The notes under the pieces were generated by a model that was not told where the DNA came from, did not search any database, and saw only the letters and a list, made by a program, of their open reading frames with translations. From Marsupella aquatica (lineage: Eukaryota; Plantae; Marchantiophyta): a DNA stretch of 64,000 bases. Below, in pieces: positions 6,561 through 64,000 of this stretch; within the stretch, counting starts at the first letter, position 1; every line of letters starts with the position of its first letter. A program made the position numbers and the translations under genes. The stretch is from assembly GCA_973895155.1 (NCBI GenBank), contig OZ316896.1, positions 22,215,722 through 22,279,721 on the forward strand. Reading direction: 5' to 3'.

Positions 6561-6804
6561 ACGACACTTCCTTCCCTCACAACTTTATTCTGTGCAGGCA
6601 CTGGGTTCCTAAATAATAAAAAGTACCCAACTGAAAGTTACAGAAGAAGAGAACACCTTCAGACCAATGAGGAATTCTTTATCAATTTTGATCGGATGCC
6701 GACAGATTGGTGGAGAGGCGGAGAGATGAACTGCTTGAGATAGTGTGTGAATCGGAGCGATTTTATGTCATCCTCATCCAGCCATCAGTTTCACACGCAG
6801 AGAG

Positions 6805-16870: not shown

Positions 16871-19800
16871 ATGGACCACCAGGTTTTCCTGGTCAGGCCC
16901 CCCGGCTTGACAAACGTGAGAGGAGCGCCCGCCAGGGGTGTGACGCGGCTCCTTCGAGTGGAGGACCATGGCATCATTTTGACGAACTTGACACCACATC
17001 CAGGGCAGCCGCTGGAGTACAGCTTCGAAAACTTGGCTAATGTCAGAGCTTCAAGCGAAGACAGTAGTGAGCTTTCTGTTGACTTGCTCGATAGCGGCAC
17101 GACGCTAAAGTTCTCCACTGAAGCAAGACCTGCTCTTCTCACTGCTCTTCATAACCGACTAGATGAAGTCAACGGCATTGGTAAGTCAGTGCAATCTTCT
17201 GAGCATTTCTAATCTGTTTCACTTATGTCACAAATGCTGACCCGTGCTTCTTTAGTAGAAGTCAGCCACCCTGGCCGACTCACTAGCTGGGTAGCCTGGA
17301 CGCTTGCTTATGTACTTTTGCAGGTATCAGCATTAACAAAAATATCTCAAAAATAATGATTTTCTTCGGACGATGATGCATAAATTCTGGTCACGTTCAT
17401 TCGCCACTCTCCCAAAAATCTTCCGACGATTTATTAAGATCAAAACAGCTCTGATCTCAATTCTCAAGAGATACCATTTTGCAACGCTGCATTTTAGCGG
17501 ATGGCTATCGTTCCCACCTTGAATGGAAAGAAATGGTGTCGGCAATCCTTCGTGGACCTCTTGGGCTGGAAGAATCATCGATTATGCTTAATGTTATGGA
17601 TCCACTGTAAGTTGCGGTAGCCCGAGGAAATTCACTCACGGCGATCTCACACTACAAGCGTTGAGGGCTGGACGGTACTTGACACTACAGCGAAGGACCG
17701 ATATGCTATAAATATTTTCCTGAGGATGGGACTGTGCGTGTGGCATTTTGAAACTGTTCCGATCTTCCCTGCATCAGTAGACGAGCTCTAGGTCGATTTT
17801 TAATCCTGGGGAGGAAGGAGATTATCCAGCGAAAAGACACAATGCAGGTTTCCCGTGGGCGGGGGTTGGGAGATCTGGAACATATTGGAGCGGTTTCATT
17901 TTTCGAAGGAATTACCTGGAGTTACTCATAAAGTGCAGAAGGGAGGGACTGGACAAAGAAGGCTGTTTAGCAGCTACTGCTATTGATGCATTAGCTACAT
18001 TGCCTACAACATTGCGGGAGATCGTTTTGTTGACCTAGAGGAGCTTGAAAGCTCTGCCGAACCTCTTCTATAGCAGTGTGGAATTTTACTCGCGATTCCT
18101 TCAGAAATCCCGCGGTCCTGACATTCTTTTCCCGATGCTATGGCCTCGAGCGCCGGAGCAGCTTTGATCCCAAAGCTGCCCTTGGAGGGCATTTTTATGT
18201 CAGATCTGTGGAAAACATAATTAATGGGATTCTACAATGACGCATTTTATTTCTGACGATGATAGACAGTGTCTTGCATCTACCGGTGTAGTGAACTGTT
18301 TGTGTGTTCGTGCAGTCTAGATCTCTTTCAATGTCATGGCAAGAAGTAACTTTCAGCTCGAGGTCCGCTGGATGGACTAGCAGGGTCGGTTGGGGCTCTT
18401 CAATTTCCAGAGAGGGGTGCTAGATTTTACTTTGTATTGCAAATAAGTTGTTGAGAAGAGGCTGAATTTGATGGGAGGGTTGTAGATAATATGATTCCAT
18501 GATGGATAATATCATTGCGTCTCCTCTCCTTTAACGAGAAAAGTCACTTCGATCTTAATGTTTGCATGAAAGTTCTCCACCAGGTCTGGTCGTTAACTTG
18601 CATTTGGCAACGTTGACTGCTTCTGCAGGCACTGACTTCTTTCTTCAAAAACATAGTAACCAGCGCGGTGGGCTAGCGGACACTGTTCTCCGCGTGCGTA
18701 GTGCCTCGCTTGTGAAAATGGTGAGCACTGGAGTCCGGCAAGAAAGACGAAAGGTAATCTTTTTTCTTCAAGACAGCTCATTTAGTGCACAAATCTCTCC
18801 TACAGGAGAAACTTTGACTATTCTGAAGTTCAGGTAGGTGATGCTATGCCGATCAGTAACAATATTGCCATTCACGTTCGTAATCTTTCGTGTGTAAGTG
18901 GTATGGTGAGGGTGGATACCGGAAGCAATGATTTACAGGAAGCTTCACATCTGTCAGATATCGTCTCATGTCATGAGGGTGACTGTCGTGCAGGTCAATC
19001 CCGCAAAGAAAGTGAATTTCGAGGATATCGTCAAGATGGAAACTCTTATTGATGATGAGCATGTTGCTCTTTTATATCTCAAATCGAGAGTGATGAGGCT
19101 CTCCTTGAAAGATTCTCTTCCTTTCTTACAGGCAGTACAACTCAACATGAAGGTGTGTAGAAAGGCTTTGTAGACCTGGATGTCACATTTGAGAACATTA
19201 AGAAAGGGTCGGATATTTTAGTACTGTTCGTTTTACAATTTGTTCGTTTGCATTCCGGCTCTGAATAACAATTTTTCGTTCCGAAGACTGAACAATCTCA
19301 ATCCTATCTATTTACTAGTGCGTTTGCTCGTATTATTTTGAGCCGAAATCTTGGACAGAAAATTTGGGGTGTCGGGTGTGCCGTCAGGCGGTCTTTGAAT
19401 TTTGTAACATTGTTTGATTGACAGATGTGTCTGAGCAAAGAGATGGAAATCGAAAAAATAACGACATCTGACATGGTTGAGAATGTCGCTGCCTACTTAC
19501 GGAAAGTTGTAAGTGAAACAAATTTTGTTGACTTGATTGCAAGGGTCCGTTGGGTACATTGCCTCATTTGGTTATGTTCTTTTGAATTTAACTGTGTGAC
19601 AAAACTTCATACGTATACAATGGAATGACATCAAATTTGTGTGTTACAATAGAGAGAATCTCCAGTTCTATACGAGTTTGAAGTTGTGAAACGTCTTGAC
19701 AACGCCAAGCAAGAGCGGGGGCGCATAATCTGCATCACCAAAGACTACTTTATTGAAAAATCGGGGGATGAGGTGATAGGCGTTCACAGGTAGCCAAGCC

Positions 19801-22800
19801 AGAGACTGCTCCGGTATTTTTCTTTTGGTCATTAGCGTAAGGTTGATGGACTATCAATGACAGTCATGGTAGCTTTCTAACATTTTGCGTCTCTGAATTG
19901 TACCGTAGTCACAATCACGTCGCATCAGCAGGTGGGATGTGAGAATTGATGAGGCATGGCTTCATGCATGCAGATTAGTATCAAGCGTAAAAACGTACAA
20001 CTTATTCATTCAAATCTTACATGTTTTTCTAATGAGTATTTACAAACTTTTGTTTGACATCGTGTGCAGTCTGAGTGATGTTCTAGGTGTAGTTGCCAAT
20101 GACAAACGTCCCAAAGACGTGATGCTTGAGCTTAAATCATGGAGAGCCACCCAATATCACATTGGGGAGAGGGATAACTTTATTGCTAGTATGGCCAGTG
20201 TGATGAATTCTGGGAAAGGTTCGGAGTTCAGCATTCGCTCGGAGCCTTTTTTTAGCTACACACTTCCTGACAAGTGCCATCCAGTCTACAAGGTCAGTAA
20301 ATGGAGTATTCTAATTTTTGTGTCTTCCGGTTTTCTTCTTGTTGTTTGCTCGTGTTGCATCCCTTGCTTTTGGGTTTAGGATGAAATCGGAAGTAGTTGA
20401 CATGCGAATGCTGAGATGCCACTAACATATTGTCTTGGACTGGAGAAAGGATTCTGCATTGCTCGCCCCTTCCTTTCTGAAATGAACCTGCTAACTGTAC
20501 ATATTTTTTGAAGCAGAGTGAGTGCGAGGCTTATTTTTTGAGTCGTTTCATGACGGTGTATAACAGCAGTAGAGAGCCACCTCTCCTGAATGTTTTGCTG
20601 AAGGAGTATGCGTGCAACTTAAATGTAAGTTTAGCTGTATTCTGTGCATGTAAGAATGGTTTGCAGTTCTTTTTGGGCTGTGGCTCGTCCTGACGGCACT
20701 ATTGCTTTCTGAGCATGTTTGTGAACTGAAGCTTGTCGTAGCTTTCCATAAAGGAGCTGTCCAGTGTATCACCTGAAAGGATTTCTATGGATATTCTAGG
20801 TTGGGGACTCGCAATGCGCAGATCCGAAGGTTTTCCAGGCGGTTACTGATGTCCTAAGGGATTGCCTTGGTAAACCATCTCTCCCTCCTTTTCATTTCAG
20901 AACTGTTTCCATGGTATGATTTGCGAAGTCTCCTGATGGAAATCTAACACCGAGTTGGTCTCCGACCAGGAGGTTCTGGACAAGATATTGTCTGCGCAAC
21001 AACTTGCTGCGTTGTATTGCAAAGACTTCTCGCATCAAAAGTATGTTTTGAAGCAGTTAAACAGATGCCTGATTTTTCAGCTCTTCTCGTTCTGGTAAGT
21101 TCATGTTACAGTAATCTGTTTTCTGTCCCTTTTCCAGGGGTGCCAGGCGTTCCCGTTTTGAGGGATGCTTGCAGCCCGTTAACCGTATGGATGATGTTTT
21201 GACCTCGAATGCATCGTCTTATGCAAGACGACTAATTTTGAGACCGGTCCTTTGACTGATACTGTTGTCATCCTTGACTCGACAGTGCATGCGATCAGAT
21301 AGTGCTGTATTGGCGTATCTTGCTACAACCGTTTTCAGAGCAGCCCTGAAGCTGAATTCGGATCAAGGAGGAGACGTGGGGAATGTCACTAGGGTATGCT
21401 TGAAACATTTTCCGGTAAAACTTTGAAGGAGGATTACAGTTCCGGGTATGCTGAGCAATCTGTAGAGGATTTGGCTTAGGGATTCGCTGGACCAAGAAAT
21501 CGTTTCTAACCTTCGTCATGTAAACTGCAGCTCGAGTCAGCAAATAAGTTGTCTGTCTTAAGTGCCGACAATTTGCAACAACTTGTTTCCCTACTTCACA
21601 CCAATTCTCTGATTTCGTCTAATGTTCTTCAGGTACTCTGGCCTGCTTAAACTCTGAACTTCAGGTTTCTTTGACCTCGCATATGTTACTCGCAACTTTG
21701 TTTTGTTAAGCTTTGGAATTAATTTTGATCCAGATCCTCCTCCGAAGGACTTTGACTTCGTGGTCAGGATCTGGCCATTGGACTTATGACGTAATGTAGC
21801 CTTATCCGATTTCTTTTGATGTTCAGATTGTGGGTCTACTGGAGATTTTTACTCTAGCATTGAGTTCGCAACCATCTGATAGTGAGGCAGGACGGATGTG
21901 GATCAAGGTAAATACTAGGACATTGTGGTGTCAGGTGTGCTCGAGCTGATTCTCCCAAATCATAATTTCTTATCTACTCGTATAAATGGAACATGGTTTT
22001 GGCTCACATTGGGAAATTGCGTGGATGCATCAGGCATTCGAGTTTTCAGTCTTGGCTGCGGCTGATGTTCTTTGTACTATAAGCAGGTTTCCTAGCGCTG
22101 TCGTCTTCCGCAGGTATCTTCTTGTTACACTGTCCTACAAGAAATAAATAATCGAAGCGCTCTGATTCTGCAACATAAACGTGAGCCGATGCATACTAGT
22201 TACGTCACTGTATTATACCTCTCTAGGAAGCTGACCGTAGAGTTGAAATTGTTCAACTTTCTCCTGACAATTTTGTTATTGTGGCCAGTAACTCGGTGTT
22301 GTTGAAGGGTCTGCTTACTCAAACATCTCCCGTTACTGCAGGCCATTTGCAAGTACGTTCGCACGAAAGTATGAATTCCATTTGCATTTGAAAGACGTTT
22401 TGCAAAATTCGAGTGGACTTTGCAGTCTGTTCACGAGACTGAGCTGCTTGCTTCTGATACCTTGGGGTGTGATGTGTAACAATCTGTCGCAGAGAGTTTG
22501 TCTAGGAAAGTGTGTGGTCCTTCTGCACCTAAAAAACGCTATCTTCTCAAAGAAACAAGAAACAAGAACGTTAAGTGGCACACTGGTTTACCTTATGTTG
22601 GAAGGTAGTAGAGATGCACGGAAGCTGCTGGAGAATATTCTTCCAAAGGTGGGGTTTATTTCTGTTGGCAAGTATTTACTCAAAAGATTTGATTTTACTA
22701 TTCTTGAAACATCGAATTACAGAATCTAACTTGTCCTTTTTGGTTGAAGGGTGTAATGCTGTTATATGCAACAAAGATCACGGAGCTGTTATTTGCTTCT

Positions 22801-25800
22801 AAGGTATGAAAATTTGCCGGCGTTCTAGAGAATTTATGGCCAAATGAATTTTGTTCGTATCTAGATGCGCCACCATGCATTAGTAGAGGAAACATTTTGT
22901 TGTGCACGCTATTCGTTTGAGCCGTTCAATTTCATCATTCGAACAACTAGAGTTTTTCAGTGTGCCTAAAATTTTGATTTACACATAAGTAGTTGTTTGT
23001 GATTTCAGGAAAGGACCCCTAACAAATTCCCTGCATGGATGGAGGTCCTGGAGATGTTGCGTTTGCACACTCTAGAGACACCTGGTTTGGTGTGGAATGA
23101 CATCAAGAGATCGGAGCTTCAAAAGGTACTCGAGGAACTAAACTGAGGAAATAACGTGGGGTTGTGTATTTGTCACTTTCTCGTAGATCATTGAACAGAG
23201 AACGGAAGTCCACTGAACTTTGTGATCCAAGATACGCAGAATGGTATAGAAAATGTACTGACAGCTGCCATTTTGTTTTTCTCGTGGCACCAGTTTCTTA
23301 AGGATGAGGTGGAAGGATATGAAGTTGCATCAGCAAAGAATCGTGACTTACTGTATAACAGTGCAGATGTGCAGCTGGTCTACTCGAGTGCGAGTGAGGG
23401 TGAAGGTAAGACAAGTTTGTGACGTTTGACATTGTGAGATAAATCAGCTTGAATGCTTGTTGGCTCCTCTTTGGTGAGAGTCGAATCTAGTTCTTTCCGC
23501 TTTCAGTAGATTGCAGCCTTGACGTCAGGGGTGATTGTCTGGGTTCATCAGGGTTGCAATGTGGATCACTCTTGCAGGTTCTGTCATTGGAGGAATCCAC
23601 CTGGAACTCCTTGTTGATCATTCCCCTCCTCCAGACAGTCCGAACAGCAATTTCTGGAAGGTAGTAGTGGGTCTATTCAAAAGCAAGGTTCTTGTGTGTC
23701 GTTCGGATGCTTAGCACAAAGACATTTTGCTTGATTTGTTTTTAAAAGTTAATCATAGATAGCCGTAGTTTGAATAGCTTTTGTGAAACACATTGCCTCA
23801 GGGTTTTCCGAGTCCTTTGGGGCACGCGAAGGGACTTCATCATCCCATCCCCCATTTTAATACTGCCAGATCCATCTTGACCTGTGATAGGATTCAATTT
23901 CAACTGTCAACAAGCAAGGAATTCTGGATTATTGAATTGAGCAAAAGAATTCGGTGCCTTTGGTATCAATCTTCAGTGTCTATCTTTGTGATCATATTGC
24001 TCATTTTGCTGAGGACTCTCCGTGACTGATTGACTTACTGACTGACTTGATCTTGGGCTATGATTTGCTGAGCAGCTGAAAAATCCTCTATCACTTTTCC
24101 AGTCAGTATTCCAGGCCATGGTGCTTGGCTTCACACCTCTATTTGGGCACAGTAGTTTACCGGAGGTTGATCTTCGGCTGGCAGCACATGCTTTGACGTG
24201 GCTGTATGAAAAATACGCAGAGCAAGTTTCCTTTGGCGTTGAGACGTTAAATGTCATTGAGGTATGATAATTTAGATTCTCTCTTTGCTTTGACCTCTAC
24301 ATAGACTTAAGCTGTTAGTGTTTAGTCTGTCTGATGATGCCTGGGGAGCGGGATGTTTGTCGGTTGTCACATAGCCCCGGAATATTGAACATGTTTTCAA
24401 AGTTGTATCCTGTCAAGTCTGTCGTGGATTTTGCATTTTCAATCAGGTTTGAACATTTCTTCGCTTTGAATGACATAGTCTATATGCTTATTTATGAAAA
24501 ACACCTGCTTTTAACAATCTTCCCGCCATTCCCCCACTCCCTTCCTTTTCCTTCCCCTGTGGCGGGCCCTCGTTTTTAATTTTATAAGAAAAAAAGCACC
24601 CAAGGTTCTTCGGTCGCGTTAGTCCATCACCAAAAGAACTCCTGCGCATGGAAAATGGTCATGAAAATACTATAATTTCCTTGCAGAAGGATGATTCCTA
24701 TTGCTTGTCAATTTTATCTGCAGACAGCTGTTGGAATGCTGCGGGAAGTGTATGAAACCGAACATCAGGTGTTCGTCTTCAAGCTGGTTGTGTTTCTTCT
24801 TACTACGGCAGAGTTTGGTGGGCAAGATAATGTACTCCGCTTTATACGAGCAGGGGGTGCGACTGTTGTTGTTCCTTTGGTCGTTCTTTCACTAGCCAAG
24901 GTGAACATGATGCCCTTTCATGGGTTTGAGCTTTGGTCCGGTGAAAGCAAATTTATGTTCCTTTCTTATATCTCAAAACTTTTCTCAATCACGTACACCT
25001 GAAACTGTTGGTGTTTGTTATATGTAGTGCTGCAAAGAATCACATGCTTTTGAGTGCGACGCGTGGAATTCCAAGGACACGAAACTTCGTGGTGCAATTG
25101 AAACCATCAAAGTTACTGGTGCCGATGGGGAAACACGGCTCGTACGCATCCCCTCTGGAAGGGCTCGAGAAGTCCTTGACAGAGCTGTGCAAGATGGTAG
25201 TCTAGACGCCAAAGAGGCAATCAAGTGGCAGGATGAGAAGGTTCCAGATAAGGTCCAGCTGGGCTTGGCTCTGGATCTATTGGAAGCTATATTGAGGTAT
25301 CCTGACAACATAGAGCTGAATGAGATCTGCCCTGAAATTTGTTTGGTTGTTTGTGTCAAGAGTCTCGTTTGCGTATACGGAAAGGAAATGGGAGGCAGAG
25401 CCTATTCATGATGGCTGACAATGATGTTAAATTTTTGTGATACAGGCATTCTGGAAGTGATGGCGATGTAGAGCATTTTCCACCATCTGCCGTTGTGACT
25501 TCTTTGTCCAGGGAGGAGATCTTTTGTCACTTAGTGCAGACTCTTCTGCGTGCAAAAACTCCAGTTCTTGGAAGGTATGCAACATGCAACTCTAATCTGT
25601 CACTGAATACTTTGATCAGAACTGCAACGGCTTTACAACATTTCTGCTCTGCGCATGGTCACAGAATAGTTTCCTTTTGTGAAAAATTTCCTTTTAAATG
25701 GTCTTTCGTGTCTCCTAATATGCTCAAGGAAGAAAGGAGTTGCAGTGATCTGGATTGCAAGGAATTATGTTCGATTGCATATTTTTCTCTTGTTTGCGTA

Positions 25801-28800
25801 CTGAAGATTTTTGAGAGGAGTTTCATGAACATGGGTCATCTTGGTTGACAGGATTTTGGAAATAATCACTGCCTTAGCAAAGACAAACAAGAGTGCAATG
25901 TCGAGGCTTTACAAGATGGGTGCTTTTGAGATCCTTTTGTGGAAGCTTCTGGCAGGGGATGTCGTTGAGAACGATAAAGTTTTAATTGCAAAGTTCCTGC
26001 AGCAGAGTCACCTTCACCAGGTGATTTGCCAATTTATTAAGTGGGGCTGCTGTGAACCTTTTTCATTTTCCCTGATGTCATCAATTTTAAGCGACGATCA
26101 ATGTTTAAGACTCTTTTGTGTGAGAGCCATGTGTTGGTTAGCTGCATTTATGGTTCACGTTGTAGTTGAATGCTTTCGTCGTTTTCCCAATCAAGTGTTA
26201 CCGCGGTACTTGGTTAGTTCGTACTGCCACACATCCTGCCTAAATCATAGTATTATTAGATCAGTCTCGCTAAATCATGATTGCTTAACAAATCCTGTCT
26301 ACATTGATGGGCAGGATCTTGACTCCATTCCTAACGGGACAGGGAAGGGTCATGAGCGGGGACACTCACCCTGGGAAGACAGCATTCTGCGCCTGTATCT
26401 TCCAGAAGGACTGATCTTGAAGCTCATATCAGAGGTTTGAGTCGTTCGTTTTGGCATGGTTCTTCTTGCCCTGGCATCCATTGCAACAAACTACTCTTAC
26501 AGAAAGGTTCTTGAAGCATTTCATTAGTCAATGGCATAGTGTATTAGCTTTAACTGTAAAGTTTTTGAACTTTCACAGGGGCCACAATCATTCGTTGCAC
26601 TCATCAATTCTGAACAAGATGCTCCAGAGGTTATTTGGAATGCGGAAATGAGGAAGCTTCTGCTGGAGCATCTTACCAACGAGCTAGAGCCGTACGTTAA
26701 ATTTCGAGCTTCAGATCCCTTGGCGTTGTACATTCATATGCCAAGGTCTCCCTTGGTTTATCCAGAACTTGCTGGTAACGACATAATCCAAAAGTTTATG
26801 ACTTTTTAGTCTTCGACATCTCACTTCGCTTCCATTCGTGTGAGAGCCTACTTTTGAGATGAGCGGCTCGCATGGAAGGATCTTGTGTGAACCATAGTCT
26901 TTCGTTGGAGCATACTTTTGTGTCAGACAGGGTGCTTGAAGAAAATGTCAGGCATTAACATTTTCCATTATGGTAGCAGATTCGGTTTTTGCTGCACCAT
27001 TTTACTTGCAAAACTTGCTGGATGACAAACGCTTCCCAACATACCAGATCAATGATTCAGTTGGCTTCTTCAACAGCCTAATGTTGGTGAGTGGTTCTTA
27101 ATGATCTGTGTTATGGAAGAGAATTTTTTCCATGTTATCTTACGTTTGGTAATAAAGGTTGATGCGGCCTGCTGGCTGGTAATTTTTTCTCACGTTTCGA
27201 TTTTCATTTCTTTGCTTTTACTTTCGCCATGACAATATGGTGGGTCTGGTTACTGGCAGGATCTACGGAAATCTCTGGCAACCGTGTCAAACGGTTCCCC
27301 AGCTGGATCTGGCGGAGCCTTGTGGCGTAAGGAGATGCCCCGAATACACCTCTTACTTCAATCTCAGGTCCTACAGTTTGTTTCCTTAATACGCAGATTT
27401 GGCTCTCCTGCTTTGTTATCTGTTGTTCTCAGTTGAATCAAACGATTCATGTATTTTCAACTTTACATGACATGAAGTTTTGGTGACGTTGTATTCGCGT
27501 CTTGTCCTACTTGCAGGCTCTTTTGCTAGAGCGATATCCTCAGCTGGTACTACCTAGTGATCTGGAATCGACAGCGATAGGTCTTGCCAATCCTGCACTC
27601 CGAACTTCGCTTGCTCAAAAGGATGAAGTTCCTCTTAGTGTAACAGAGATTCTTCAACAAACAACTAGAATTCTGAAAAGATTTTGCTATGTTTGTACCA
27701 GGTAAGAACTCTTCTGGCCCCTACATTTGAAGTACAGAATCGACACTGGCAACCTGACTTTGGACAGGATAGGGACTCGTTGGTTGTGCTGGGAATGAAT
27801 GAATTTAAAATCCACGGGGAATTAAATGGGTTATACCAAAGGTGGAGCTACTTGTCTTGAGAAACACTGCTTTGGTCTTAAGCATTACCTCAGCTTCGTG
27901 TAAGGATCGCTGGGCGCTGATGCTGTTCACGAATTGATCACGTATCTTCTTGCAGAGAAGGTGAAGTCCCAACTGCTACTCTAAATTTTTCTCTCAGCGT
28001 GCTGGGACTGGGACCAAAGCTAAAACACGACGTTGAGGAGAACAGCAGTAGTACTTCGAGTCTCGAATCTGCGGTCGCAGGTTCTCTTTTTGTGCTCGAG
28101 CTTGCCTCCTCAACAAGGTAATACAAATACGATACATCCAGTAAATCAAGTTGAAGATCGCAGTGCGTTGGGTCCAATAGCTGTAGTGAAGTTATTGATC
28201 AGTTGTTATGGTTTTCAGGAAAGGGAGGGAGCTTTTGCGGGATGATATTAGATGGAGAAAAGGGTTCTGGTGGGCTATCTGCACAGCCGCTAGCGATGCT
28301 GCAGCTGTTCCCCCAAGAGGCCCTAGCCCAGTCTCCTTTGCTGCCTTGGGTTGTCTTAAGCACTTTGCCGAAGATGAACAATTTTGCGATCGTATCATGA
28401 AGCAGGTGTGTCTTTGGTTGCGGGAGAACTGTCTTCTCTCTTCTAGTTTGGCACGCGTGACTGCAATCGATTATTGTTAGAACTGATCAATTTACCATCA
28501 CTCTGTCGTGAAGTTTAAGTAAGGAAAGGAAATCTCTCTCTCTATATATATATATCGACTTTGAAGTTCATCCTGCTCAATAGCTGCACAATAAATTACA
28601 AGTCGGTGGCTAACTCATAAGCAAAGACAAGTCCTTGATTTCTACAGCATTTGACCGATGAAAATGAAGTTCACATTCGTCACGATGGCTTCCATTAACT
28701 CTTGGTCCATGTTGGCAGGCTTTGTATATTCCTTTGCTTCTGCTGGCAGTCCCACCTGTTGATGCGGCTGTGAAGGCTCAAGATTCAAAGTCTGCGCTAC

Positions 28801-31800
28801 TCTACTCCGCAGCAGATGTTCTGGGTGCTCTTGTCCGGATGCTAGATCAGGCAGGGGGGTCTAATCCTTCTGAACGGCAGAAACTGGGACAAGGCGTTAT
28901 CTCCAGACTGATTCCAGCTCCCTTATTGTCATGCTTACAGCAAGAAGAGGGAGTGGAGAAATTTATCAATTTGATAGCCTCAGATGTTGTGGAACCCTTG
29001 GCGTTGTGGACAGCCGAAGTCCGGACCGAGCTCCGAACCCGACTTAGTGAACGCCTTCAACAGCATAATGCCAGTCTTGCCTCCGGGAGTGCTCCATCTG
29101 GGGATGAGCTTGAGTGGTTGCAAAGCTTTCAGTACGAGTCCGTCAAGGGAGAGCTTATTGTAGGTGGTCTGTTCGTGAAATCCGTCGCGGGTGGACAATG
29201 GGGAAGCTCCAGTTTACCTGCTGGTCACGAATTTCTAGATGGCATAATGGAGTACTTGGCCGTCACCCAGGAGGTTTTGTTTGTACAGGACAAGGAAGTT
29301 GAAAAGAGGGAAGTTGGAGAAGAGAGAAGAGACATTGAAGATGAAGAGTCGGTGAAAAAGGAAAGAGAAGAAAAGGAGCAGGCAGCTGTTGCAGAATACC
29401 TCACGGTTTTGGCTGCTCTTAGAGAAGGGTTGAAGTATGCCATCAAGTGTGACAGAGGCGACATCCTTGAACATGTGCAACCCTCAGCTCTTGCCAAGAT
29501 TGTAGTGGGAGGCAAAAGCCATCCAGAGGCATGTGTTGAGATTTCTACTATTGTGAAGGTGTTAGCTGAGCATAAGCTATCCAGGGATGCAATGCTACGG
29601 TCTGAACTGATGCAGGCTCTAACCGTGCAGCTATGGCAAGCTGCGACATCTAGTGGTGAGGAACATCTGAAGGAGGATATTCTGATGGAAACTCTTGATG
29701 CATTCCTCCTCCTAAGTGAGAGAATTCCCGCTACTTTGTCCGCCACCAACTACTTTGCCAACTGTGGAGCGCTTCTCCCCCTTCTGGCAATTTTCTGCCA
29801 TGTAGATCTTCCCAGCCTGGATGGAGATGATATTGGCATTTCAACAGCGCAGAATATACCCTTCGAAGGGAGACTGTTGGCTGCCCAAACCTTGGGCCAG
29901 CTTTTGTTGGCTGGCAGTGGAGTGAGCCGCCGATCCAAGTTGCTTAATGATATTTCCAAACAGAAGATGTTGCTAAATGGAAATGGCTCAGCGAATGGGC
30001 ACAAGACGACTCATGAAGGGATTGGGGAAGCAACAGATATGTATCAACTCGTCAATTTGCTTGAGCCCAGCTCTGGTGGTGACAAATCAGAACCACTAGT
30101 CATAGCGACATTGCTTCTTCTCCTACCCGTGGACCTATTATCCACTTTGGCCAGGGACCCACAGGGAGGTTGTAAGGCTTATGATGGCTCTTCTCAGTCT
30201 CCGAGACTGGTATGGGACCAAGAGACCCGAACTCGTGTAAAAATTGTTTTGTCCAAGGAAGCAGCAAAGGTGCAGGAGGTTGTGAAGACAAAAGGGCTGG
30301 TGGCTATGCCTTCATGGTCCTTAAGCAAGCGACGACCTGCGTTCTTGCGGAGTATCTTAGTCACCATATCGGACAATGAAACAAGGCCATTGTTCAGGGA
30401 TGAGGCTGGAGACGATTATGCACTCGAGATGTATCTAGGTGGCTTTTTTGTGGACCAATTTTTGAGAGATCCTGGCTATGATTTTGGCAAATTGCTTGAG
30501 GAACGATTCTCGCGAGAGATCCGGAAGGCTGTGGTCATAGGGGCGCCTTCTGATGGATTCAATGCATATGAGTTCAGTTTTGATGACAGGAGACGGCTTC
30601 TCCTTGCCTTGATCTTACTATTCAAAGGGCGCCCAGCTCTACTCTCTGGACACTCTAATCTGGATATATTTTTCCCAGTTTACGAGCTTATTAGTAGTGG
30701 CAGTGGGATGGAAAGACGCGCTCTATCACAAGCCGCAATGCTTTTATTTCATTGCACAGCTAATAGTCCAGATATTGCTGATTGTATGAGTTCCTCGGAA
30801 CTGATCTACACGTTGGCAACTTTCCTGGAATTAAAAGTTCCTCCCTCAGACGCGGGTAGTGCGGGAACGGATCCCAGATTATGCAGCCTCATGCTATTGC
30901 TCCGCCTGATTCGCCTCAGCAGTGCAACAGTAGAGATAGCTCTCAAACTGGGTTTCGTGTCAAAGGTAGCTGACATTGTGCTCAATGTTGATGACTCGGC
31001 CGTTGTTCGGCAACGGGCAGCGGAGTGTCTAGCAGTTATGTGTTCGGACAAAAGGAGGGGCCATGAGGTCACGAGATTGTTGGAAAATCTCGTTCCTCAA
31101 AATGCTAAAGGATATGGAGCATGGAATATACCTTTGGGCAACATTCGTGAGGAATCTGTTGACTCGAGAACTATGAACCATTTTCTGCGATATCGTTTCC
31201 CTTGCAGTTGGTGGACACTGGACACCCCAGAGGGAACCACGGTAACTGAAGTACCAGAGCCCATGGGCCCCGTCACCGTTGTTGATGCAACTGTGACTTT
31301 CCCAAATGGAAAGCTTTCTCACTTCAATGACGATGCCGAGGGTGTGTTTAAAAGAAGTATTGCGGCAATGGCTAATGTCGAGATCCGAGATGTAAATATA
31401 TTAAGAAAGCGTGCCGGGAGCTTAATGATTGACTTCCAAGTTTTTTTCAGGCGTAGACAAGATTCTGGAAGGACATATCATTATCGTGAACCTGAGGTAG
31501 AAGCTCGTGCGTTTAAAGAGAAACTAGAGAGGGAGGGGACGAAGTTGTTTTCAAGTCGATTCTTTGAATCAATGGGGACACCTAGAGTGACATCAATTGC
31601 TTTGAATCACATCGCCAATAACCTTCAGTCGTCCCCTCTGAAAAGCAACTCTCTCCCAAGCGAGGGAAGCGTTGGGAATCCAACCGTTCAAATAGTGTAC
31701 ATGGCTGCTGGTCAAGCCCCACCCTTGAGAACGAACAGCACAGGAAAGGATGTGAATGTCATATATGTGCAGGGTAATCCAACGTCAGAGCAGCTTCTGA

Positions 31801-34355
31801 AGGCATCTGGGATAGACTTTGGAGATCAGGGGAATTTTGTGCTCCCACAGCAACCTCAAATAGTGTACCAGCTTCCTCCGGGCAGCACGGGGTCACCTCA
31901 ACCTCAGGTCATTTACCAAGCTTCACCGGGGCAGTCGTCAATGCTTGGGCAAGCAACTGGATATCTACCACAACTTCAATCATCTGTAGACATGTCGACT
32001 GTCATTGCTGCGAAGCCCCAGCAAGTCCCCACTTTGGTATCGGAAAGTAGAGGACATCCTCCTTTGTCTCAGGACATCTATACAAATGGTTTTACATCTT
32101 CCTTTCCAGATTCATTCTTGCCAGGATTGCAAGGCTCTCTCTCGCCCGCGCCATCTACTCCCACACGTACACCTTCATTGCCTACAATGTCATCTCCACC
32201 TTCATCCCTACCATCTTTCAAGTCGTTGCCCAGCATATCTCCCTTCTCCTCACCACTTCCCCCATCCTCCAATAGAAGCAGTATTCCCAGTGCTGTATCT
32301 CCACCAACACCACCACTACCTGTTGCACCTGCCAGAGCATCCCCTCCTCCAGCACCTCCGGTCTCAGGTATACGGAGTCCACCACCTCCTCCGCCACCCC
32401 CAGGTGGAGCTTCTCGTGGTCCTCCACCACCTCCACCACCCCCAGGGGGAGCTGCTCGAGATCCTCCTCCTCCACCTCCACCACTCCCAGGGGGAGCTTC
32501 TCGAGGTCCTCCTCCACCTCCACCACCCCCAGGTGGAGCATCTCGAGGCCCTCCTCCACCTCCACCACCCCCAGGTGGAGCATCTCGAGGCCCTCCTCCA
32601 CCTCCACCACCCCCAGGTGGAGCTTCTCGTGGCCCTCCTCCACCTCCACCACCTCCAGGTGGAGCTTCTCGTGGCCCTCCGCCACCTCCACCACCACCAG
32701 GTGGAGCTTCTCGTGGTCCTCCACCTCCACCACCCCCAGGAGGAGCGACTCGTGGCCCGCCTCGACCTTCTCCATCCAAATCAAGTACTCCACCTCCTGC
32801 TTCAATGAAAGCAGCCCCGCCCCTACCACCCTCAGAAATGCTTCCCGTTGCAGGTAAGTGTGCACACTCTCTGCGATGCTTTAACTTGGATGTAATGTGG
32901 TGGATTATTTAAATGAACTTTTCGTCTCTCAAGGCTATTTCAATGTTGCTACTGTTGCAGATCTTAGGCTAATGCTGCGTTTGTCCTTTTCCAGACACGG
33001 GTGCCTCAAAGAAAAATGGTTTCATGGTTAAGTCAGAAGAAGGAAAGTGAGTCATCGATACTGAGTACTTTGGACATTTTTTCTCCGCCTAGTTGATAGT
33101 TGTGATAGTTTAAAAGTGGATTCTGTTATTTTATTATGAAGATAGTCATCAAACGCTTTGACTCACAGGCTGATATGGTGTTTCCCTTACTTTTGCAGAA
33201 TGGTGCCTCTAAGAAAAGCCATTGACCTGGTTTTGGAAGGAGCTGACATAACGGATGAAAACAAAGGACTTGCCACAGTGAATTTTCTAGAAGCATTTGA
33301 AGAAGGTCAGCTCAACCCCCAGTTTCTCTGTGCTGAGGATATGTTCATCCATTTCCTGGCTGACATGCAATCAAAGTGTGACGTCTTACTTTTTTCCTAT
33401 TTCTCGTGGTGGGATGACCAGATGAGGAAGAATTAGGGAGAATGCTAGAGAACTATCCAAAGCTTGTACAAAAATATGCTCTACAGCCACAGCTCTGCTA
33501 CGATTTGATGTGCGTTTGGGAAGAGCACTGCTTGGATCTAATGCTGCCAGAAGAGCTGGTAAGTGAAGTAGACTTCGTGATTTCGAAAGCATTGGAATTA
33601 TATCTATTCGAACTGCTGTTTTATGGCAATGACTGTGTGTAGCTGTTAGATTTAAGTTGTAAGAACCATCGCTTAGATCTTGCATTGAAGGTAGTCATTC
33701 TTATTGAAAAATTTGTGATATCGACTTTGTTGCAGGCCAAGTACAAACGGGGAATTGCAGCATTCGATCTTTGCAGATTAGATGATCCTGTACAGGCTGT
33801 TCAGGAAGCGAAGAAGAAGTTTGCAGGAATTCTGAAGACGCGGAAGTAAGTTTTCTGGATTCTCATCTCACCTATACTATGATTTTTACCACGAAAATTT
33901 GATGCAAATGATGGAAATGCAGTGGCGCTAAATGTTTATAGACACTTATTTGTAGCCAATTACAACATTACATATTTGGTTCATGTTACCGGACTGATGA
34001 CGATGGCTGTTGAACGACCCAACGCAGAGAGAAGGAATGGAAAGAGAAAAGTAAGCAGATAAAGGGAGACATGTCTGCAGAACTGGCCAAGGCTGTCGGA
34101 GGACGAAAGGTAATTTTTTTGTGGTTGTTATTTTTTGGCACAATTTTTCTTGCAGTATTCCCTAGCTCCTTAGTTTGAGAAACCTAACCACTGAGTTGTG
34201 TTTATATGCCTGATTTGAGACTAGTTTTTAAAGCAAGCCCTCGGACTTTTGGTGTTGTGCAGGAGAAGATGAATTTAGAGAACGCTCAGGATGAGTTGAA
34301 GGCAATGTCAAAGGGGAAGATCCAGAAAAAGAAGAAATCACAAGCTGGGTCATAA
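16871..34355 (+). CDS. Divergent RME-8/DNAJC13/GRV2-like protein lacking the J domain, with C-terminal SEA-like module, polyproline region and putative WH2/C-like tail; ~38 exons, ~3,000 aa (hand count)
   Basis: RME-8-like segments in order: LKFSTEARPALLTALH; YEFEVVKR...GRIICITKDYFIEK...ERDNFIASM; LQRLLASK; four IWN-type repeats PGLVWND (~23080), PEVIWNA (~26630), PLALWTA (~29000), PRLVWDQ (~30205), each followed by a (V/I)GG.(Y/F/H)L-like motif; SILRLYLPEGL...YPELADSVFAAPFYLQNLLDDKRFP. A 4.1-kb exon spans 28719-32853. The last exons (32995-33046, 33199-33305, 33422-33558, 33736-33845, ~34028-34109, 34263-34355) splice with consistent phases to TAA at 34353-34355. Confidence 0.88.
32375..32765 (+). 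repeat. Coding tandem repeat, ~42-bp unit encoding PPPPPPPP-GGASRG, nine units (FH1/WASP-type polyproline region)
   Basis: Read directly in ORF 28722..32912. Confidence 0.95.
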
Positions 34356-36968
34356 CAGTCTAGCCCAAGAGGTTGACCTGCAACCTGGGCTGTATGTCAG
34401 AGCACATTGTTTTAGCGCATTTTGCCAATTTGTAGGTGTTACCCTATTGGTGAATCAGAGTACGTGAAAGGAAATATTCCCGAGAGATAGGGCTCCAATT
34501 CATTGCGAGACAGTTCTAGTCAAGCTATTCTAAAACGTAGCAGTGTTTAGTGTGTAAAACGTAGTCAGAATGTAGAATCTATTCTTGAGGCGGGGTCATT
34601 TGATGGATCTGAGAATTCAAAGGAAGAGTTTATTTTTTAATAAGGCTGAAGCCTGAAGCAACTGCAGTTTCTCCCTTCGGAGATCATATTGAGTAAACTA
34701 CAATTTTGACGGGAGAACCCATCTTTGATGGGGAAACTATTGTGTGGGCCAGCTTTCCCCGGTAGGGTCCGAATCGGTTGAGCTCATTGTCACACTACCT
34801 TCGCCTCTCGTTGTGTCAAGTAGGAATTTCATCTGTTGGAATGAAATGGAGTGGAATCGAACGGATTTGATTTCATGCAACGATTTTGAAGGTCAGAGAG
34901 CTCCAATTTTGCAAACATCTGTCAGAGCGGGAGTGTCTTCGTCAACCGGGTGGTGCATATGTGCAGCAAAAGCATAAACACTGATTCGAAGGTCTGCATT
35001 CTGTTTACCTCTGACAGACAACAATTCTACTTTTCTTTCGTGTAAGAGTCCTCCATCAGGAGCCACAATCATCACCTCAATGGCGATTTCAATTTCAGTT
35101 TGCCAGACATGCTTTGTTACTGTATGTTTTCGCTCTGAATATCTTGGTCAACTTGGTCACTACCGCAAACGTTTACCCACTGATTTAGACCCCCAAAATA
35201 GCCTTGAATGGCCACCCTGCAAGTCTTGAAGCAAGTGAATAACTTTTTGTGATCAAAGATCGCAAACCAAGTTACTACTACCCATAGCATGTCTAGTCGA
35301 CCCATCCAAGAGATGATGAGCGGCCAACAGGGAAGGCATTGAAATAACCCGAAGTTCAAAAAAATGTAGACAAGAGCAACTTACATGGTTACCAACCCTT
35401 CAACCACTTCGGACACTTTCTCTTTGTATTTGCTGGATGTCTTGTATGACAGTCATGGAGGCATGTGTTACGTTCATAAACTTGGAAAAGATGACTTTTT
35501 GTTTATCAAGACTAATTTGTGTGTAGTGAACTGAGCTATCATAATCAGCAATGTGGATTGTCCTGAACATGAAGTATAACATCTTATCTGGCCAGTAACA
35601 TTTTATATGAACATCATGTTTACGTGATAACATCTATTTTCAATTGGGCAAATGCTTTTAATTTGTATTCAAAAGACTTGATATATACCCTCCATTGCTC
35701 TCTGCATAACTCCAAGATATGGATTCCTCCTACGTGACAGAAAGACTGGTAGCTTGGCGACTGCATGGTTGTAGACTAATTGAAAAACGTCTATTAATAG
35801 GATTTATGTAAATTTTATGGGTTTATTTTTAAAACAGTGAACCACCGATACATTAGTCTTTTTACATGAAAATGGTTGACTATTCCTAGAACTAATTTAT
35901 CTACAAGGAATTTTGTAAACCACCTTTTGTATGTCTTAGTTTACTTGTGGCTACACTCTTACCATGGCATGGGTGTTTCATCTTTCCACTCTGAATATAC
36001 TCTTACCAGGGTGGACCTCTCTCTTGTGCATGGAAGTAAATGCTGGCTTTGGACATCAATCATGGAGACATAGTGAGAGGTGTTGCTAACAACGAGAGGT
36101 CCTGCTTCCAGACACTTTGGTCCAAAAATTGCTTGCATTTACGTACAGTCTACCGTGTCTAAGTGCAGGCTCCCGGGACCCCAAGCCTGCAGTTATCCAC
36201 GTTATGCACTTCATCATAAGTGCATGGTGCACTTTTCCATATGTGTCTGTTGCACTTTCCAATAAATGTCTATGAAATCACTAATGCACTTCCACAAATG
36301 TCTTGTCAGGTCATATACATAGACTTCTCATACCCAGAATACTCATAGTGCACGATTGAACTGAATAAGTGCATGAAACTACAGTGTAGTTGTTTGTTGC
36401 ACTTATCAATAAATGCTTCTATCATATGTGTTGCAGTCATTGATTAATGCATCTATACTCTTATAGATGGAAAATGCCCTTATGTATTTGTCGTTTAGTG
36501 ACGGACGACCTGCACTTACAAACGGTGCATTTTTTGGTGCATTTACAAGGAATTTGCTATAATATTGAGGGACGACACAAACACCCTGCAGTTACCCATG
36601 GAATGCAGTTATACACGCTGCACTTAGACACGGTAGACTGTACACAGTCACAAGGGTACTAGCTTCCAAGGGTAAAGCATGAGAGCATACATGCCATGGG
36701 GTCCACAAACTAATTTCAATTAGAATCAGCTTCCAAGACCGTATAAAATGTAGATCCTTGCCTATGATGTAAGAGTTGCATCCCCGGATTTTTCCTATGT
36801 CAATGTGGTTCATAGAATGTTCCAATTCTAGTAGTCTACTTGTCTGCCAATCTATAGTGAAAGTCTGGCCATGCATTGATTTTTACACAAACTTTCCTGC
36901 AAGTGGCCTGACAAAAATTAAGCTAGATAGCTTTCTATCTAGCTTGCAAGCGGTTCCGTCGTGAATTC

Positions 36969-39950
36969 ATGGAAATTCAATCTAAAAAAACAAGTAAACA
37001 AATAACAATAGAGGATCTTCGCGCAAAAATATTATCGCTGCGCTCCTTCGCTGGTGGCTGCCTAACTGGAAACAACCTCACTGAGTTGCGAGAGGCGGAG
37101 GTTGCTCTTAGAGATTCTGAGTTCCGAGAGGCTATTGAGCTTCGTAAGAAATCAAGGATTCGGTGGCTGGGGCTCGGGGATGCCTCTACTAAATTCTTTT
37201 TTAATATTGTTAGGATCCAACAGCAGCGAGCCAGGATTCCTTGCCTTCGTCTCTCGGATGGCACATTATCTCACAACAAGGATCTGGTCCTCATAGAAGT
37301 TGGAAACTTCTACCGTTCACTCTATTCCCCGGATGCCCCGGAAACTCAGCTCAATGTACAAGCTAGAAGGAAAATGCTTCGGTTCTCCTCCAAACGAATC
37401 TCTCAAGCAGAATCCAATCAGTTAGACGCAGCCCCTTCTATGGATGAACTCTTTTCAGCAGCCAAAAAGATGAAGAAAAATAAAGCCCCAGGCCTAGACG
37501 GCCTTACAATAGAGGTCTTTTTGGGGTGTTGGGGATTCATTGCGCCAGCCTTTACCGGCATGATCTTATCTTTCTGGGCAGACGGTATCATGCTACCAGG
37601 ATTTATAGAGGGAGTAATAAAGCTGGTCCCACAATCAACTGATAAAACAAGATTGACGGATTGGAGGCCAATCACTCTTCTGAATATAGCATATAAAATC
37701 ATAGCAAAGCTGATTGCTATCAGGCTCGGGAGAGTTCTGCCAAAGATGGTAAACCCTCAACAAACAGGGTTTGTTCCTGGGCGTCAGATTCTTGATAACG
37801 TTTCTTTGGCATGGTTGGCGATAGACTGGATCTCAACAAATAACGTGCCTGCTCTATTCATAAAAATGGATTTTTCAAAAGCATTTGACCGCGTAGACCA
37901 CCGTTACATCAGGGAGACTCTCAGCACATTAGGCCTGAGCCAATCGCTTACTAGGAATATCATGGGTCTAATGATGCAAGCAACTGCTAAGGTTCATGTC
38001 AATGGGTTATTCACGGAACCCATTCCTCTCATGCGGGGAGTCCGTCAAGGATGTCCCCTCGCCCCTCTCATCTATGCATTATCGACACAGCCTCTCATGG
38101 ACGTCTTTGACGCAGCCCTACAGGCTAATGAACTGCAGGGCATTAAAATAAATAACAAACTCACTCTGTTTCATAGATTCTTTGCAGACGATCTAGGAGT
38201 TATCACCCCTGCTAAGGAATCTAGCTTCTTGGATATATGTGGAACGATGGACTTATATGAGCATGCAGCAGGGGCACGCCTAAATCTGGAGAAGACCGAG
38301 GTTCTCATTTTATGCATAGACACTCCTCCGCAATGGTTATTAGATACCAAATGTGTAATCGTTCCTATGGGCCATATATCCAGCTACTTGGGTGCCCCGA
38401 TTGGACAATATCTATCCAAGACCCAACTACATGAATATTGCCTGAAAAAATTGAACAAAAGACTCGCTTCTTGGTCGAACAAAAGCTTCTCATTCACGGG
38501 TCGTGTCCTGTTGGTAAAACAGGTCTTGTTATCCATGACAGTATTCCATATGATGTATACTAACTTCGCAGTGAGTTTTACAGACATGATTCAACGGACG
38601 TGTAAGAATTTTCTATGGGGTTATAACAAAGAGGGAGCCAGGAAAACACCATTGGTTTCCTGGGACCGGATGTGCGCCAGTAAACAAAATGGGGGCCTCG
38701 GGTTCAAGGACATAAATCTTCAGGCCACGGCATTGCTGGCCAGATGGGCCATTCGGATGATATCAGACCAGGATTCAGACTGGGCGATATTATTCTCGGC
38801 CAATCTCCGCCTGGCAGCATGGAAAAAGACGGTGTTGCTTCGCCAAGCAGGGTACACCACCATGGATCGGTTCCTATTCTCCTCCCCGTCCAGCTTTCGA
38901 GGTATGGTATACACGGCAGGTATATGGAGGGCATGGAATAAGATCAGGATCAACTTGCACTGGCAGTCTGGCTCACAAGCCATTCCAGCAAGATGGAGGA
39001 TCGAGGACTTTCTTCCTAAATTTTTCACCTCCTCAGACTTTCCTATCTCTTTGGTTCCTAGGATTATCATCGCCTGTTATCGTCTAAATATTCGGTATGT
39101 CTCTGACCTCTGGATGCAGGATCCGGGCTGTTGGGTGGACTTTTTGCCTCGTCTCTCCAGGCTGCGGGGGTTTGGGGTCATAGAGTTAGACACTCTATCT
39201 AGGATCATTTTGTCTATTCATAGCGGCCCTCCACCTTCCATTTCTTCTTCCTTCGCCGGATCCCAATGGTTCTGGTGTGGCCTTCAAAATCATCGCAGAC
39301 CTCATTTCCTCAGCAGCATGCAAGCTTATAATTTCCTACACCAGGCTGGGGGAGACATCGGCTCTCTTAACAATCGATGGGGGACGTCAGACTCCGCAGG
39401 AGATTGGGGGCGCAGGTGGAGGAGGATCTGGCGATCAGATCTGTCTAATCGTGGTAAAATCTTTTTATGGCGGGTCCTGGCTGCAGGATTATTTTCAGGA
39501 AAACGAGCTAAGCAGTGTGGACATGGAGATGGGATGTGTCCATCCTGCCCGGATCGGGTGGAGGATAATCCTCATATTTTCTTCTCCTGCAGGCAAGCTA
39601 TTTGTGCTTGGAACCGGACTGCCTGGTTCTATGAGCGGGTGCCGTCTCTCTCCCTTCTTCCAGGGGGACATTCTTTCACAAGCACATTGGACCTTGCCCT
39701 TGGTCGTACCCCACGGCTATCTGCTCGTATTTTTGTTATCTATGAAACCGTGTGGCTCCTATGGAAAAATAGAAACTCTCAGTTGTTTCAAAGCCAAACT
39801 GTAGTCTTCTCCCCCTTTCTGGCCGCATCATCTGTCGTTCAGCATCTACGTTCGGTGGCTCTTTGTTCAGACTCAGAAAAAAAGAAAAATCGTCTATACT
39901 ATGCTGAGAAGTATATCTCTGGTCCTCTGACCTCTCGTTGTCCTCGTTGA
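36969..39950 (+). CDS. LINE ORF2 remnant: reverse transcriptase plus C-terminal zf-RVT; endonuclease lost by 5' truncation
   Basis: WLGLGDASTKFFF, KAPGLDG, WRPITLLN..YKIIAK, QTGFVPGR.I.DN, KMDFSKAFDRV, RGVRQGCPLAP, FADD, YLGAPI, GGLGFKD, CPSC....E...HIFFSC. Uninterrupted 993-aa frame that stays open upstream to the insertion junction. Confidence 0.96.
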   Translation: MEIQSKKTSKQITIEDLRAKILSLRSFAGGCLTGNNLTELREAEVALRDSEFREAIELRKKSRIRWLGLGDASTKFFFNIVRIQQQRARIPCLRLSDGTLSHNKDLVLIEVGNFYRSLYSPDAPETQLNVQARRKMLRFSSKRISQAESNQLDAAPSMDELFSAAKKMKKNKAPGLDGLTIEVFLGCWGFIAPAFTGMILSFWADGIMLPGFIEGVIKLVPQSTDKTRLTDWRPITLLNIAYKIIAKLIAIRLGRVLPKMVNPQQTGFVPGRQILDNVSLAWLAIDWISTNNVPALFIKMDFSKAFDRVDHRYIRETLSTLGLSQSLTRNIMGLMMQATAKVHVNGLFTEPIPLMRGVRQGCPLAPLIYALSTQPLMDVFDAALQANELQGIKINNKLTLFHRFFADDLGVITPAKESSFLDICGTMDLYEHAAGARLNLEKTEVLILCIDTPPQWLLDTKCVIVPMGHISSYLGAPIGQYLSKTQLHEYCLKKLNKRLASWSNKSFSFTGRVLLVKQVLLSMTVFHMMYTNFAVSFTDMIQRTCKNFLWGYNKEGARKTPLVSWDRMCASKQNGGLGFKDINLQATALLARWAIRMISDQDSDWAILFSANLRLAAWKKTVLLRQAGYTTMDRFLFSSPSSFRGMVYTAGIWRAWNKIRINLHWQSGSQAIPARWRIEDFLPKFFTSSDFPISLVPRIIIACYRLNIRYVSDLWMQDPGCWVDFLPRLSRLRGFGVIELDTLSRIILSIHSGPPPSISSSFAGSQWFWCGLQNHRRPHFLSSMQAYNFLHQAGGDIGSLNNRWGTSDSAGDWGRRWRRIWRSDLSNRGKIFLWRVLAAGLFSGKRAKQCGHGDGMCPSCPDRVEDNPHIFFSCRQAICAWNRTAWFYERVPSLSLLPGGHSFTSTLDLALGRTPRLSARIFVIYETVWLLWKNRNSQLFQSQTVVFSPFLAASSVVQHLRSVALCSDSEKKKNRLYYAEKYISGPLTSRCPR

Positions 39951-63800: not shown

Positions 63801-64000
63801 GAAAATACCCCTATGGGGAAAATCATTAAAGAGACTCTTTTCTCTACCCATGCGGGTTTTACGTAACTCAAATTGAATGTTTGCATAACAATGCACAACC
63901 AAGCGAATTGCCCGCGCTTGGCATGCACGCCTTGGCCACCCCGGTCAATCCATGCTAAGCAAAATTATTAAGAATTCACGAGGCATTCCAACCAACATAC
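60869..64000 (+). mobile_element. Ty1/copia LTR retrotransposon, Bianca-like lineage, degenerate; 5' LTR ~60869-61157, PBS 61158-61169, gag-pol from 62356, runs off the window
   Basis: TG...CA-bounded ~290-bp LTR candidate (left end uncertain) with a TATA-like motif at ~61126, followed by CGTTATCAGCAC. Coding motifs are listed in the next feature. Confidence 0.88.
62356..64000 (+). pseudogene. Disrupted copia gag-protease-(pre-integrase) polyprotein
   Basis: MANLEKLTFSALEIDGNNYLEW (Bianca-type gag start), ELWTTLKTRFDHQ...LPRARQEWLNLQVQDFTSISTYNSELFRITS, LLEKTLSTFH, zinc knuckle CHECGMTNHLAYNC (~63278), protease CIIDSATTHTIL (~63513), RNLLSFRDIRANG, WHARLGHPG (~63919). Several stops and frameshifts. 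Confidence 0.9.

Follow-up and report, generated by a model that had tools for sequence, protein, structure and literature searches.

RME-8, called DNAJC13 in humans and GRV2 or KAM2 in Arabidopsis, is an endosome-sorting protein with a PH-like N-terminus (RME-8_N), four IWN repeats, ARM-like solenoids, a GYF-like fold and a J domain (PMC13618431, PMC12404652, PMC3359526); the function of canonical GRV2 in Arabidopsis is reviewed in PMC3359526. The PHL1 fold of human DNAJC13 contacts phosphatidylinositol 3-phosphate (PI(3)P) through K17, W20, Y24 and R26, the protein recruits WASH to endosomes, and its GYF-like fold belongs to a type of domain that binds Pro-Pro-Gly motifs (PMC13618431). Its HPD motif opposes endosome binding, which is restrained by both the J domain and the C-terminus (PMC12404652). 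Actin nucleation-promoting factors of the WASP family, WASH especially, carry a targeting head and a proline-rich region followed by short amphipathic helices (PMC3298513). We analysed a 64,000-nucleotide stretch of the Marsupella aquatica genome (the window; contig OZ316896.1, positions 22,215,722 to 22,279,721) and found a gene whose product shares with RME-8 the PH-like N-terminus, the four IWN repeats in the same order, the ARM-like solenoids and an insert at the GYF-like position. It differs in that the J domain is deleted and the Trp of PHL1 is lost; relative to plant GRV2 it has up to 720 additional C-terminal residues.

One gene encodes the scaffold and its C-terminal extension

Spliced alignment to a Calypogeia fissa protein (P0002) placed the gene at 16871..34355 of the window, on the forward strand as are all features described here. 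It runs from the ATG at 16871 to the TAA at 34355 in 38 exons, encodes 3,002 residues with a single stop, and has GT..AG boundaries at all 37 introns. Identity to P0002 was 93.8% (2,812/2,997 aligned residues) and identity to Marchantia MARPO_0060s0082 was 73.9%. Splicing was homology-guided, and a few splice sites are possibly off by some bases. A query with the large exon returned nine long proteins, headed by a Calypogeia fissa protein of 3,010 residues (93% identity) and continuing with MARPO_0060s0082, Physcomitrium, Sphagnum and Ginkgo. Judged by splicing and conservation, this is a genuine protein-coding gene.

The end of the ARM-like scaffold, the third and fourth IWN repeats, a SEA-like module, a linker and a proline array were all found in one open frame, exon 32 (28719..32853; 4,135 nucleotides), so that no intron separates the scaffold end from the prolines. 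Annotations in Calypogeia, Marchantia, Physcomitrium, Sphagnum and Mesotaenium show the same join of scaffold and tail. In mosses, 2,942-residue proteins that combine the scaffold with the tail domain (P0006, P0039) are encoded on contigs of 9,543-9,684 nucleotides, one of them being found on 50 contigs, and a 3,130-residue protein of a Sphagnum cluster (P0052) on a contig of 10,919 nucleotides. These contigs are too short for introns and are therefore best read as mRNA assemblies. Shorter forms are annotated as well: in Marchantia, isoforms of 2,494 residues end upstream of the prolines, and in Physcomitrium the tail domain is missing from isoforms of about 2,760 residues.

The J domain is lost from its exact position

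Pfam assigned RME-8_N (PF19432) to residues 26-648 of P0002 (E 2.2e-37) with no DnaJ match, and this was the sole significant family in 9/9 long homologues. Single exons of the window were too short to pass and gave nothing significant in Pfam (best E 0.11). For canonical plant GRV2 we used one comparator, P0197 of Cornus florida, in which Pfam finds RME-8_N, GYF_2 and DnaJ. The family profile aligned to it in five stretches (169 bits in total) and placed the IWN repeats at GRV2 956, 1437, 1905 and the 2191-2315 region. In the window protein, exons 1-6 (16871..20292; residues 1-346) cover the part that corresponds to RME-8's three PH-like folds, as judged from RME-8_N on P0002 and the GRV2 alignment. 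Motif search and alignment located the IWN-type repeats at residues 689 (23087..23110), 1134 (26630..26653), 1527 (29004-29024) and 1928 (30207-30230), the last two in exon 32. The second repeat lies in the stretch best conserved against GRV2 (BLAST E 9e-22 over residues 971-1223), where identity is about 29%.

Past this second repeat come 103 residues in GRV2 (1525-1627; Pfam DnaJ 1575-1615, HPD 1593) but only 23 in the window protein, with flanks that align on both sides. The deletion thus amounts to about 80 residues holding the J domain, in whose place a short linker is found (27278..27316), and no HPD motif occurs anywhere in the 3,002 residues. The insert found where GRV2 has its GYF-like domain (25097..25237, placed by alignment) is degenerate and has no Pfam GYF_2 match, whereas GRV2 has one. 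The PHL1 motif K-x2-W-x5-R is present in GRV2 and missing from 6/6 J-less proteins tested; by eye, two basic residues are perhaps left. With this motif absent, there is no support for targeting to PI(3)P in the manner of human DNAJC13. By alignment, then, the protein is a J-less relative of the endosome-sorting RME-8, with its J domain lost at the exact position. Because the J-domain and PI(3)P-motif tests failed, we set it apart as an RME-8 variant rather than a member, and for want of both features the name under which the Marchantia protein is listed in the database, 'DnaJ homolog subfamily C member 13', is misleading.

The initial annotation of this DNA had described one continuously spliceable gene of about 3,000 residues, with an RME-8 scaffold (PH-like N-terminus, four IWN repeats, ARM-like helices), no J domain and some 700 extra residues on the same polypeptide. 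All of this was borne out, the extension measuring 720 residues from the start of the SEA-like module to the C-terminus.

An apparently undescribed J-less family in streptophytes

Scoring of 7,986 candidates left 32 proteins: one is a distant oomycete protein, and the other 31 belong to the family. Members that carry a name are from Chara, Closterium, Mesotaenium (presumably so, from its label Mesen1), liverworts, mosses, Adiantum, Ceratopteris, Ginkgo, Cryptomeria and Taxus. Eight further, unnamed members were placed beside ferns or conifers by FastTree, in a tree of 31 rows from which C-terminal parts had been cut off and duplicates and Sphagnum P0008/P0009 left out; its topology broadly tracks plant phylogeny. 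No angiosperm was named among the 31, though members down to 38% identity surfaced, which is good but incomplete evidence of loss. Literature searches turned up no description of the family, its gene identifiers or the tail, in line with the initial annotation's impression of an undescribed architecture; gene lists in supplements could still mention the loci. The family is apparently ancient and undescribed, reaching from Chara and Zygnematophyceae through bryophytes and ferns to conifers. Non-flowering plants apparently hold a second, J-less RME-8 that is missing from flowering plants. A missing part of plant endosome evolution thereby opens to genetics in Marchantia, where one gene was found, and in Physcomitrium, with four paralogues (two with the tail and two without).

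Seven of the 31 members were shown to have the tail domain, which was absent from the models of 23/31 (two of them via cluster members), P0009 not being among those scored. Several of these 23 models are incomplete or questionable. Fern proteins reach only the SEA-like module's first strand and conifer proteins end short of the module; these end points suggest that an ancestral tail was lost repeatedly in the family. The idea that the J domain had been traded for the tail is unsupported, given the 23 J-less members whose models lack the tail domain. A supposed link to flagellated sperm fell likewise, since there are members in conifers, Closterium and Mesotaenium, and Mesotaenium even has the tail.

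Some of the models have peculiarities of their own. The gene models P0068, P0076, P0077 and P0007, from Mesotaenium, Closterium and Ginkgo, are doubtful. The two Closterium models run on into other Pfam families. The Mesotaenium model has a duplicated scaffold segment and misses half of the tail domain; the Ginkgo model misses its first 214 residues and ends about where the tail domain would start. The oomycete protein, a possible orthologue that is RME-8-like and 2,400-2,500 residues long (P0079, P0126; Globisporangium cluster), has its J domain deleted at the position seen in the plant family. A recent plant duplication of GRV2 was considered and is unsupported, the single GRV2 and the oomycete J-less protein both sitting on very long branches.

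The SEA-like module has a ferredoxin fold

AlphaFold2 modelled the SEA-like module (31272..31607; residues 2283-2394) as beta-alpha-beta-beta-alpha-beta, a ferredoxin fold, with a predicted local distance difference test (pLDDT) of 83 and a predicted template-modelling score of 0.76. In structure comparison, SEA structures scored Z 6.9-7.6 (MUC16 SEA: Z 7.1, root-mean-square deviation 3.6, 105 aligned), tied with other ferredoxin folds including PII and PheRS domains, and the best match was an unrelated protein (Z 8.9). Pfam SEA found no match in the module; an ESM Atlas SEA cluster (0.83) is a lead only. The SEA-like fold proposed from the letters alone therefore held, and SEA kinship itself was left tied with the other folds.

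A Gly-Ser pair (31416-31421; Gly2331-Ser2332, G58-S59 of the model) lies in the turn between strands 2 and 3 and is followed by hydrophobic residues in 9/12 aligned rows, being missing in three Closterium rows. The module thus resembles the SEA domains of MUC1, MUC16, dystroglycan and GPR126 (PMC9564314, PMC10556640) in its ferredoxin-like fold and in this hairpin. It differs from them in the missing Pfam match, the tied scores and a predicted cytosolic location. MUC1 self-cleaves between the Gly and Ser of GSVVV (PMC9564314), and cleaved SEA halves, whose cleavage site lies in such a hairpin, stay joined until pulled apart (PMC10556640). By analogy, we hypothesise that the module may self-cleave at its Gly-Ser; if true, an SEA-type domain that cleaves itself in the cytosol would in its own right be a novelty.

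Two further segments, delimited by sequence alignment, follow. The linker (31686..31919) contains four short Ile/Val-Tyr motifs, which Marchantia, Mesotaenium and Ginkgo retain in part, and the Ser/Pro-rich stretch (32139..32372) is poorly conserved, at 39% to Marchantia.

Polyproline tracts precede an undescribed helical domain

The proline array (32373..32774) consists of 9.3 copies of a tandem 42-nucleotide unit and encodes nine runs of 7-8 prolines, most of which end in Pro-Pro-Gly. Within the family, arrays of long proline runs were seen only in liverworts. Formin FH1 regions and the proline arms of Ena/VASP likewise place tandem, Gly-flanked polyproline tracts of the profilin-binding type just before a conserved C-terminal domain. 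Unlike those proteins, the 9/9 full-length homologues have no FH2 or EVH1 by Pfam, and the part after the prolines is about 185 residues long.

These last ~185 residues have no Pfam match. AlphaFold2 predicted a small helical domain (the first 80 residues have a pLDDT of about 88) together with a long helix of low confidence. Since the model came from six sequences and has low confidence in its C-terminal half, the domain may yet have a known fold. The domain spans residues 2821-2944 in exons 33-36 (33027..33845). Fold searches with the model gave no clear match in Foldseek (best E 0.21), in a viral library (best E 0.25) or in VIA, whose best score (Z 5.4) fell on a designed repeat protein, and ESM Atlas gave no usable one. 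PDB sequence searches returned only chance or proline-run matches, with no DNAJC13 structure found, and no tail relatives were found in prokaryotic genomes. The nine tracts, the small helical domain and the basic end that the initial annotation had listed were thus all recovered.

A profile of six tails matched 60 proteins at E <=0.001 among 1.84 billion, many of the short ones resembling single-exon fragments. Ten matches were looked up and five could be named: a Selaginella model, three Cymbomonas proteins and one Phalansterium protein. In the reciprocal direction, a 76-residue core profile built from 17 amoebal-type proteins alone found 10/10 plant and algal-type domains (E 3e-13 to 2e-6), with reversed controls at or below -0.6 bits. 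The match of the core alone therefore points to homology independent of coiled-coil composition.

Outside the RME-8 family, at least four prolines were found within the 80 residues before the domain in 17/20 proteins, versus 2/51 control windows further upstream. The profile used here held no proline run, the 60 hits were filtered to >60 aligned positions and >60 upstream residues, and the Selaginella model, probably a piece of an RME-8, was excluded; the 20 proteins are related to each other and do not represent 20 independent events. Within the RME-8 family, a proline run adjoins the domain in liverworts and Mesotaenium and not in mosses.

The proteins without an RME-8 scaffold have heads of other kinds. 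Three Cymbomonas tetramitiformis proteins (P0132, P0135, P0136) have a proline-rich stretch and the tail domain, with PH domains in two of the three. An undescribed family of 370-600 residues (P0154, P0160-P0167, P0171-P0173, P0184, P0185), one member of which is from the amoeba Phalansterium, combines polyproline and the tail domain with what is probably a coiled coil, and has a Met-Gly start in 9/12 examined. Its acidic Trp-x-x-Ile/Val motif, also in 9/12 examined, resembles what we take to be the ATG8-binding pattern. It is plausible that the Met-Gly starts and the PH domains serve as membrane anchors.

Two conserved helices end the tail

Both terminal helices are kept across the tail-domain family, and they are the most conserved part between liverworts and Mesotaenium. 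Over the last 57 residues, identity to Marchantia is 91%; identity to Mesotaenium is 92% (52 residues compared), whereas scaffold segments reach 41-55% with Mesotaenium. This near-identity indicates a very conserved partner. The last motif (34284..34355), a short helix followed by Gly, a basic end and the stop codon, is conserved across the domain family; it is WH2- or thymosin-like by eye only, the likeness to beta-thymosins being one that we presume, and fails the WH2 pattern. The motif before it (34065..34097) is an amphipathic helix that fits the published C-domain pattern; both patterns were taken from Kollmar et al. (PMC3298513). The last 25 residues of the window protein have a net charge of +4 and no Trp, where a VCA end is acidic. 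The charge was +4 to +6 in 8/8 proteins checked, and the basic end persists in mosses, where the helical motifs decay. With WASP-family factors the protein thus shares a head, a proline-rich region and short amphipathic helices, one of them a tentative fit to the C pattern. It differs from them in having no WH2 consensus and no acidic Trp end, a C-like helix that comes before the WH2-like one, and a folded 125-residue domain between prolines and motifs.

A candidate actin-adapting module

We tentatively favour the reading that this is a J-less RME-8 paralogue with an optional C-terminal module that adapts actin to the membrane of its scaffold, probably alongside WASH. By homology, the scaffold would sit on a membrane, although the lipid may differ because the Trp that contacts PI(3)P in human DNAJC13 is lost. 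Loss of the J domain would free it from Hsp70 control, as might be expected from the opposing effect of HPD in human DNAJC13 (PMC12404652). Profilin would load on the proline runs and the two tail helices would capture actin, so that the module may bring profilin-actin or actin filaments to the scaffold's membrane, probably beside WASH and not in its place. Tail-less splice forms and paralogues would serve as plain scaffolds. The actin idea gains indirect support from the proline runs before the tail domain in 17/20 proteins outside the family. The C-domain pattern also speaks for it, fitting in 9/32 domains and, for the window protein, in 2.4% of shuffles. The domain occurs in plants, in amoebae and in a green alga, and outside plants it almost always comes after polyproline, which makes it a candidate for an unrecognised actin-regulator domain.

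Several observations weigh against this reading. The WH2 pattern as given in PMC3298513 was matched by 0/32 proteins, and there is no Pfam WH2. The C-domain fit is confined to 9/32 domains, four of them near-identical liverwort rows, and the spacing allowed was chosen after seeing the sequence. The order of the two helices and the basic end point the same way. Moss orthologues keep the helical domain (59-62%) and have lost the adjoining proline runs and degraded both motifs (40-42%). The 23/31 members that show no tail domain count here as well, some being partial or doubtful models, and the loss of the PHL1 motif leaves endosome targeting unproven. The actin-binding role of the tail, to which we give the same tentative standing, is predicted from sequence features. 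Of the WH2/C-like, actin-engaging tail claimed in the initial annotation, the C-like helix was kept, with proline adjacency as indirect support, and a true WH2 or VCA end was not.

Alternatively, and less probably in our judgement, the tail could be a regulatory or partner-binding module unrelated to actin, one that assumes the inhibitory part played in DNAJC13 by the J domain and C-terminus. For example, the Pro-Pro-Gly repeats could bind the protein's own GYF-like insert, or SH3/WW proteins. Such a role would agree with the restraint that both parts of human DNAJC13 exert on endosome binding (PMC12404652), with the affinity of GYF domains for Pro-Pro-Gly and the GYF-like fold of DNAJC13 (PMC13618431), with the tail-less splice forms of Marchantia and Physcomitrium and with the unmatched WH2 pattern. 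However, the GYF-like insert is degenerate, and the proline-plus-domain unit also occurs in proteins without the RME-8 scaffold, hence has a function of its own.

We consider it unlikely that the protein is a long tether, with the scaffold on one membrane and the basic tail on anionic lipids of another, or on microtubules. About 400 residues of low-complexity linker do separate the protein's ends, and the constant positive charge, which outlives the helical motifs in mosses, would suit such a function. However, amoebal-type homologues end acidic yet retain both helices, and the near-identity of liverwort and Mesotaenium tails exceeds what a charge patch needs.

Returning to the actin-adapting module, a much wider version of it can be imagined, which we regard as speculative and improbable as a whole. 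The tail would be a new actin-regulating module spread across eukaryotes, built of proline runs, the helical domain, the C-like helix and a thymosin-like end and placed on varied membrane heads: RME-8 in streptophytes, PH in a phagocytic green alga and a myristoyl-type head in amoebae. The self-cleaving SEA-type domain would act as an intracellular, load-sensitive breakaway link, and flowering plants would have lost the system together with WASH.

A published survey bears on the relation to WASH, which is present in Physcomitrella, Selaginella and Picea, with fragments in Pinus and Cycas cDNA; only apparent pseudogene fragments are described in some monocots (PMC3298513). The range of the J-less family overlaps with that of the plants in which WASH is complete (moss, Selaginella, conifers; PMC3298513), an overlap that shared ancestry alone could give and that favours partnership or parallel loss over replacement. 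In its strong form, the initial annotation had an RME-8/WASH partnership collapsed into a single chain that replaces WASH and activates Arp2/3 on endosomes. The RME-8 scaffold and the proline runs followed by a C-like helix speak for this form; the missing WH2 consensus and acidic Trp end, the reversed motif order, the retention of WASH in moss, Selaginella and Picea (PMC3298513) and the absence of the tail from most family members make it very improbable. A false join of two neighbouring genes, or of a scaffold gene and a proline-rich gene, would suit the 279-residue Selaginella model with the tail domain alone (P0130; a split annotation or a stand-alone gene) but is hardly credible given the single exon from scaffold end through proline array, the moss and Sphagnum-cluster contigs without room for introns, and the identical join annotated in five genera.

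Other features of the window

Five further features were found on the forward strand. At 3-1076, an IRX15/GXM-like gene has its Pfam domain interrupted by an in-frame TGA (603-605) that an ATG immediately follows; it may be a pseudogene, a sequence error or an edited codon. A spliced serine carboxypeptidase S28 gene lies at about 6751-12700, one exon of which matches Pfam (E 2.6e-17). Downstream of the RME-8-like gene by 2.6 kb, an open LINE-type reverse transcriptase frame of 1,007 codons occupies 36927-39947. The SAUR (auxin-inducible) gene at 55801-56448 has a stretch of about 28 residues duplicated ahead of its domain, and a retrotransposon Pol polyprotein fragment lies at 63486-63863.

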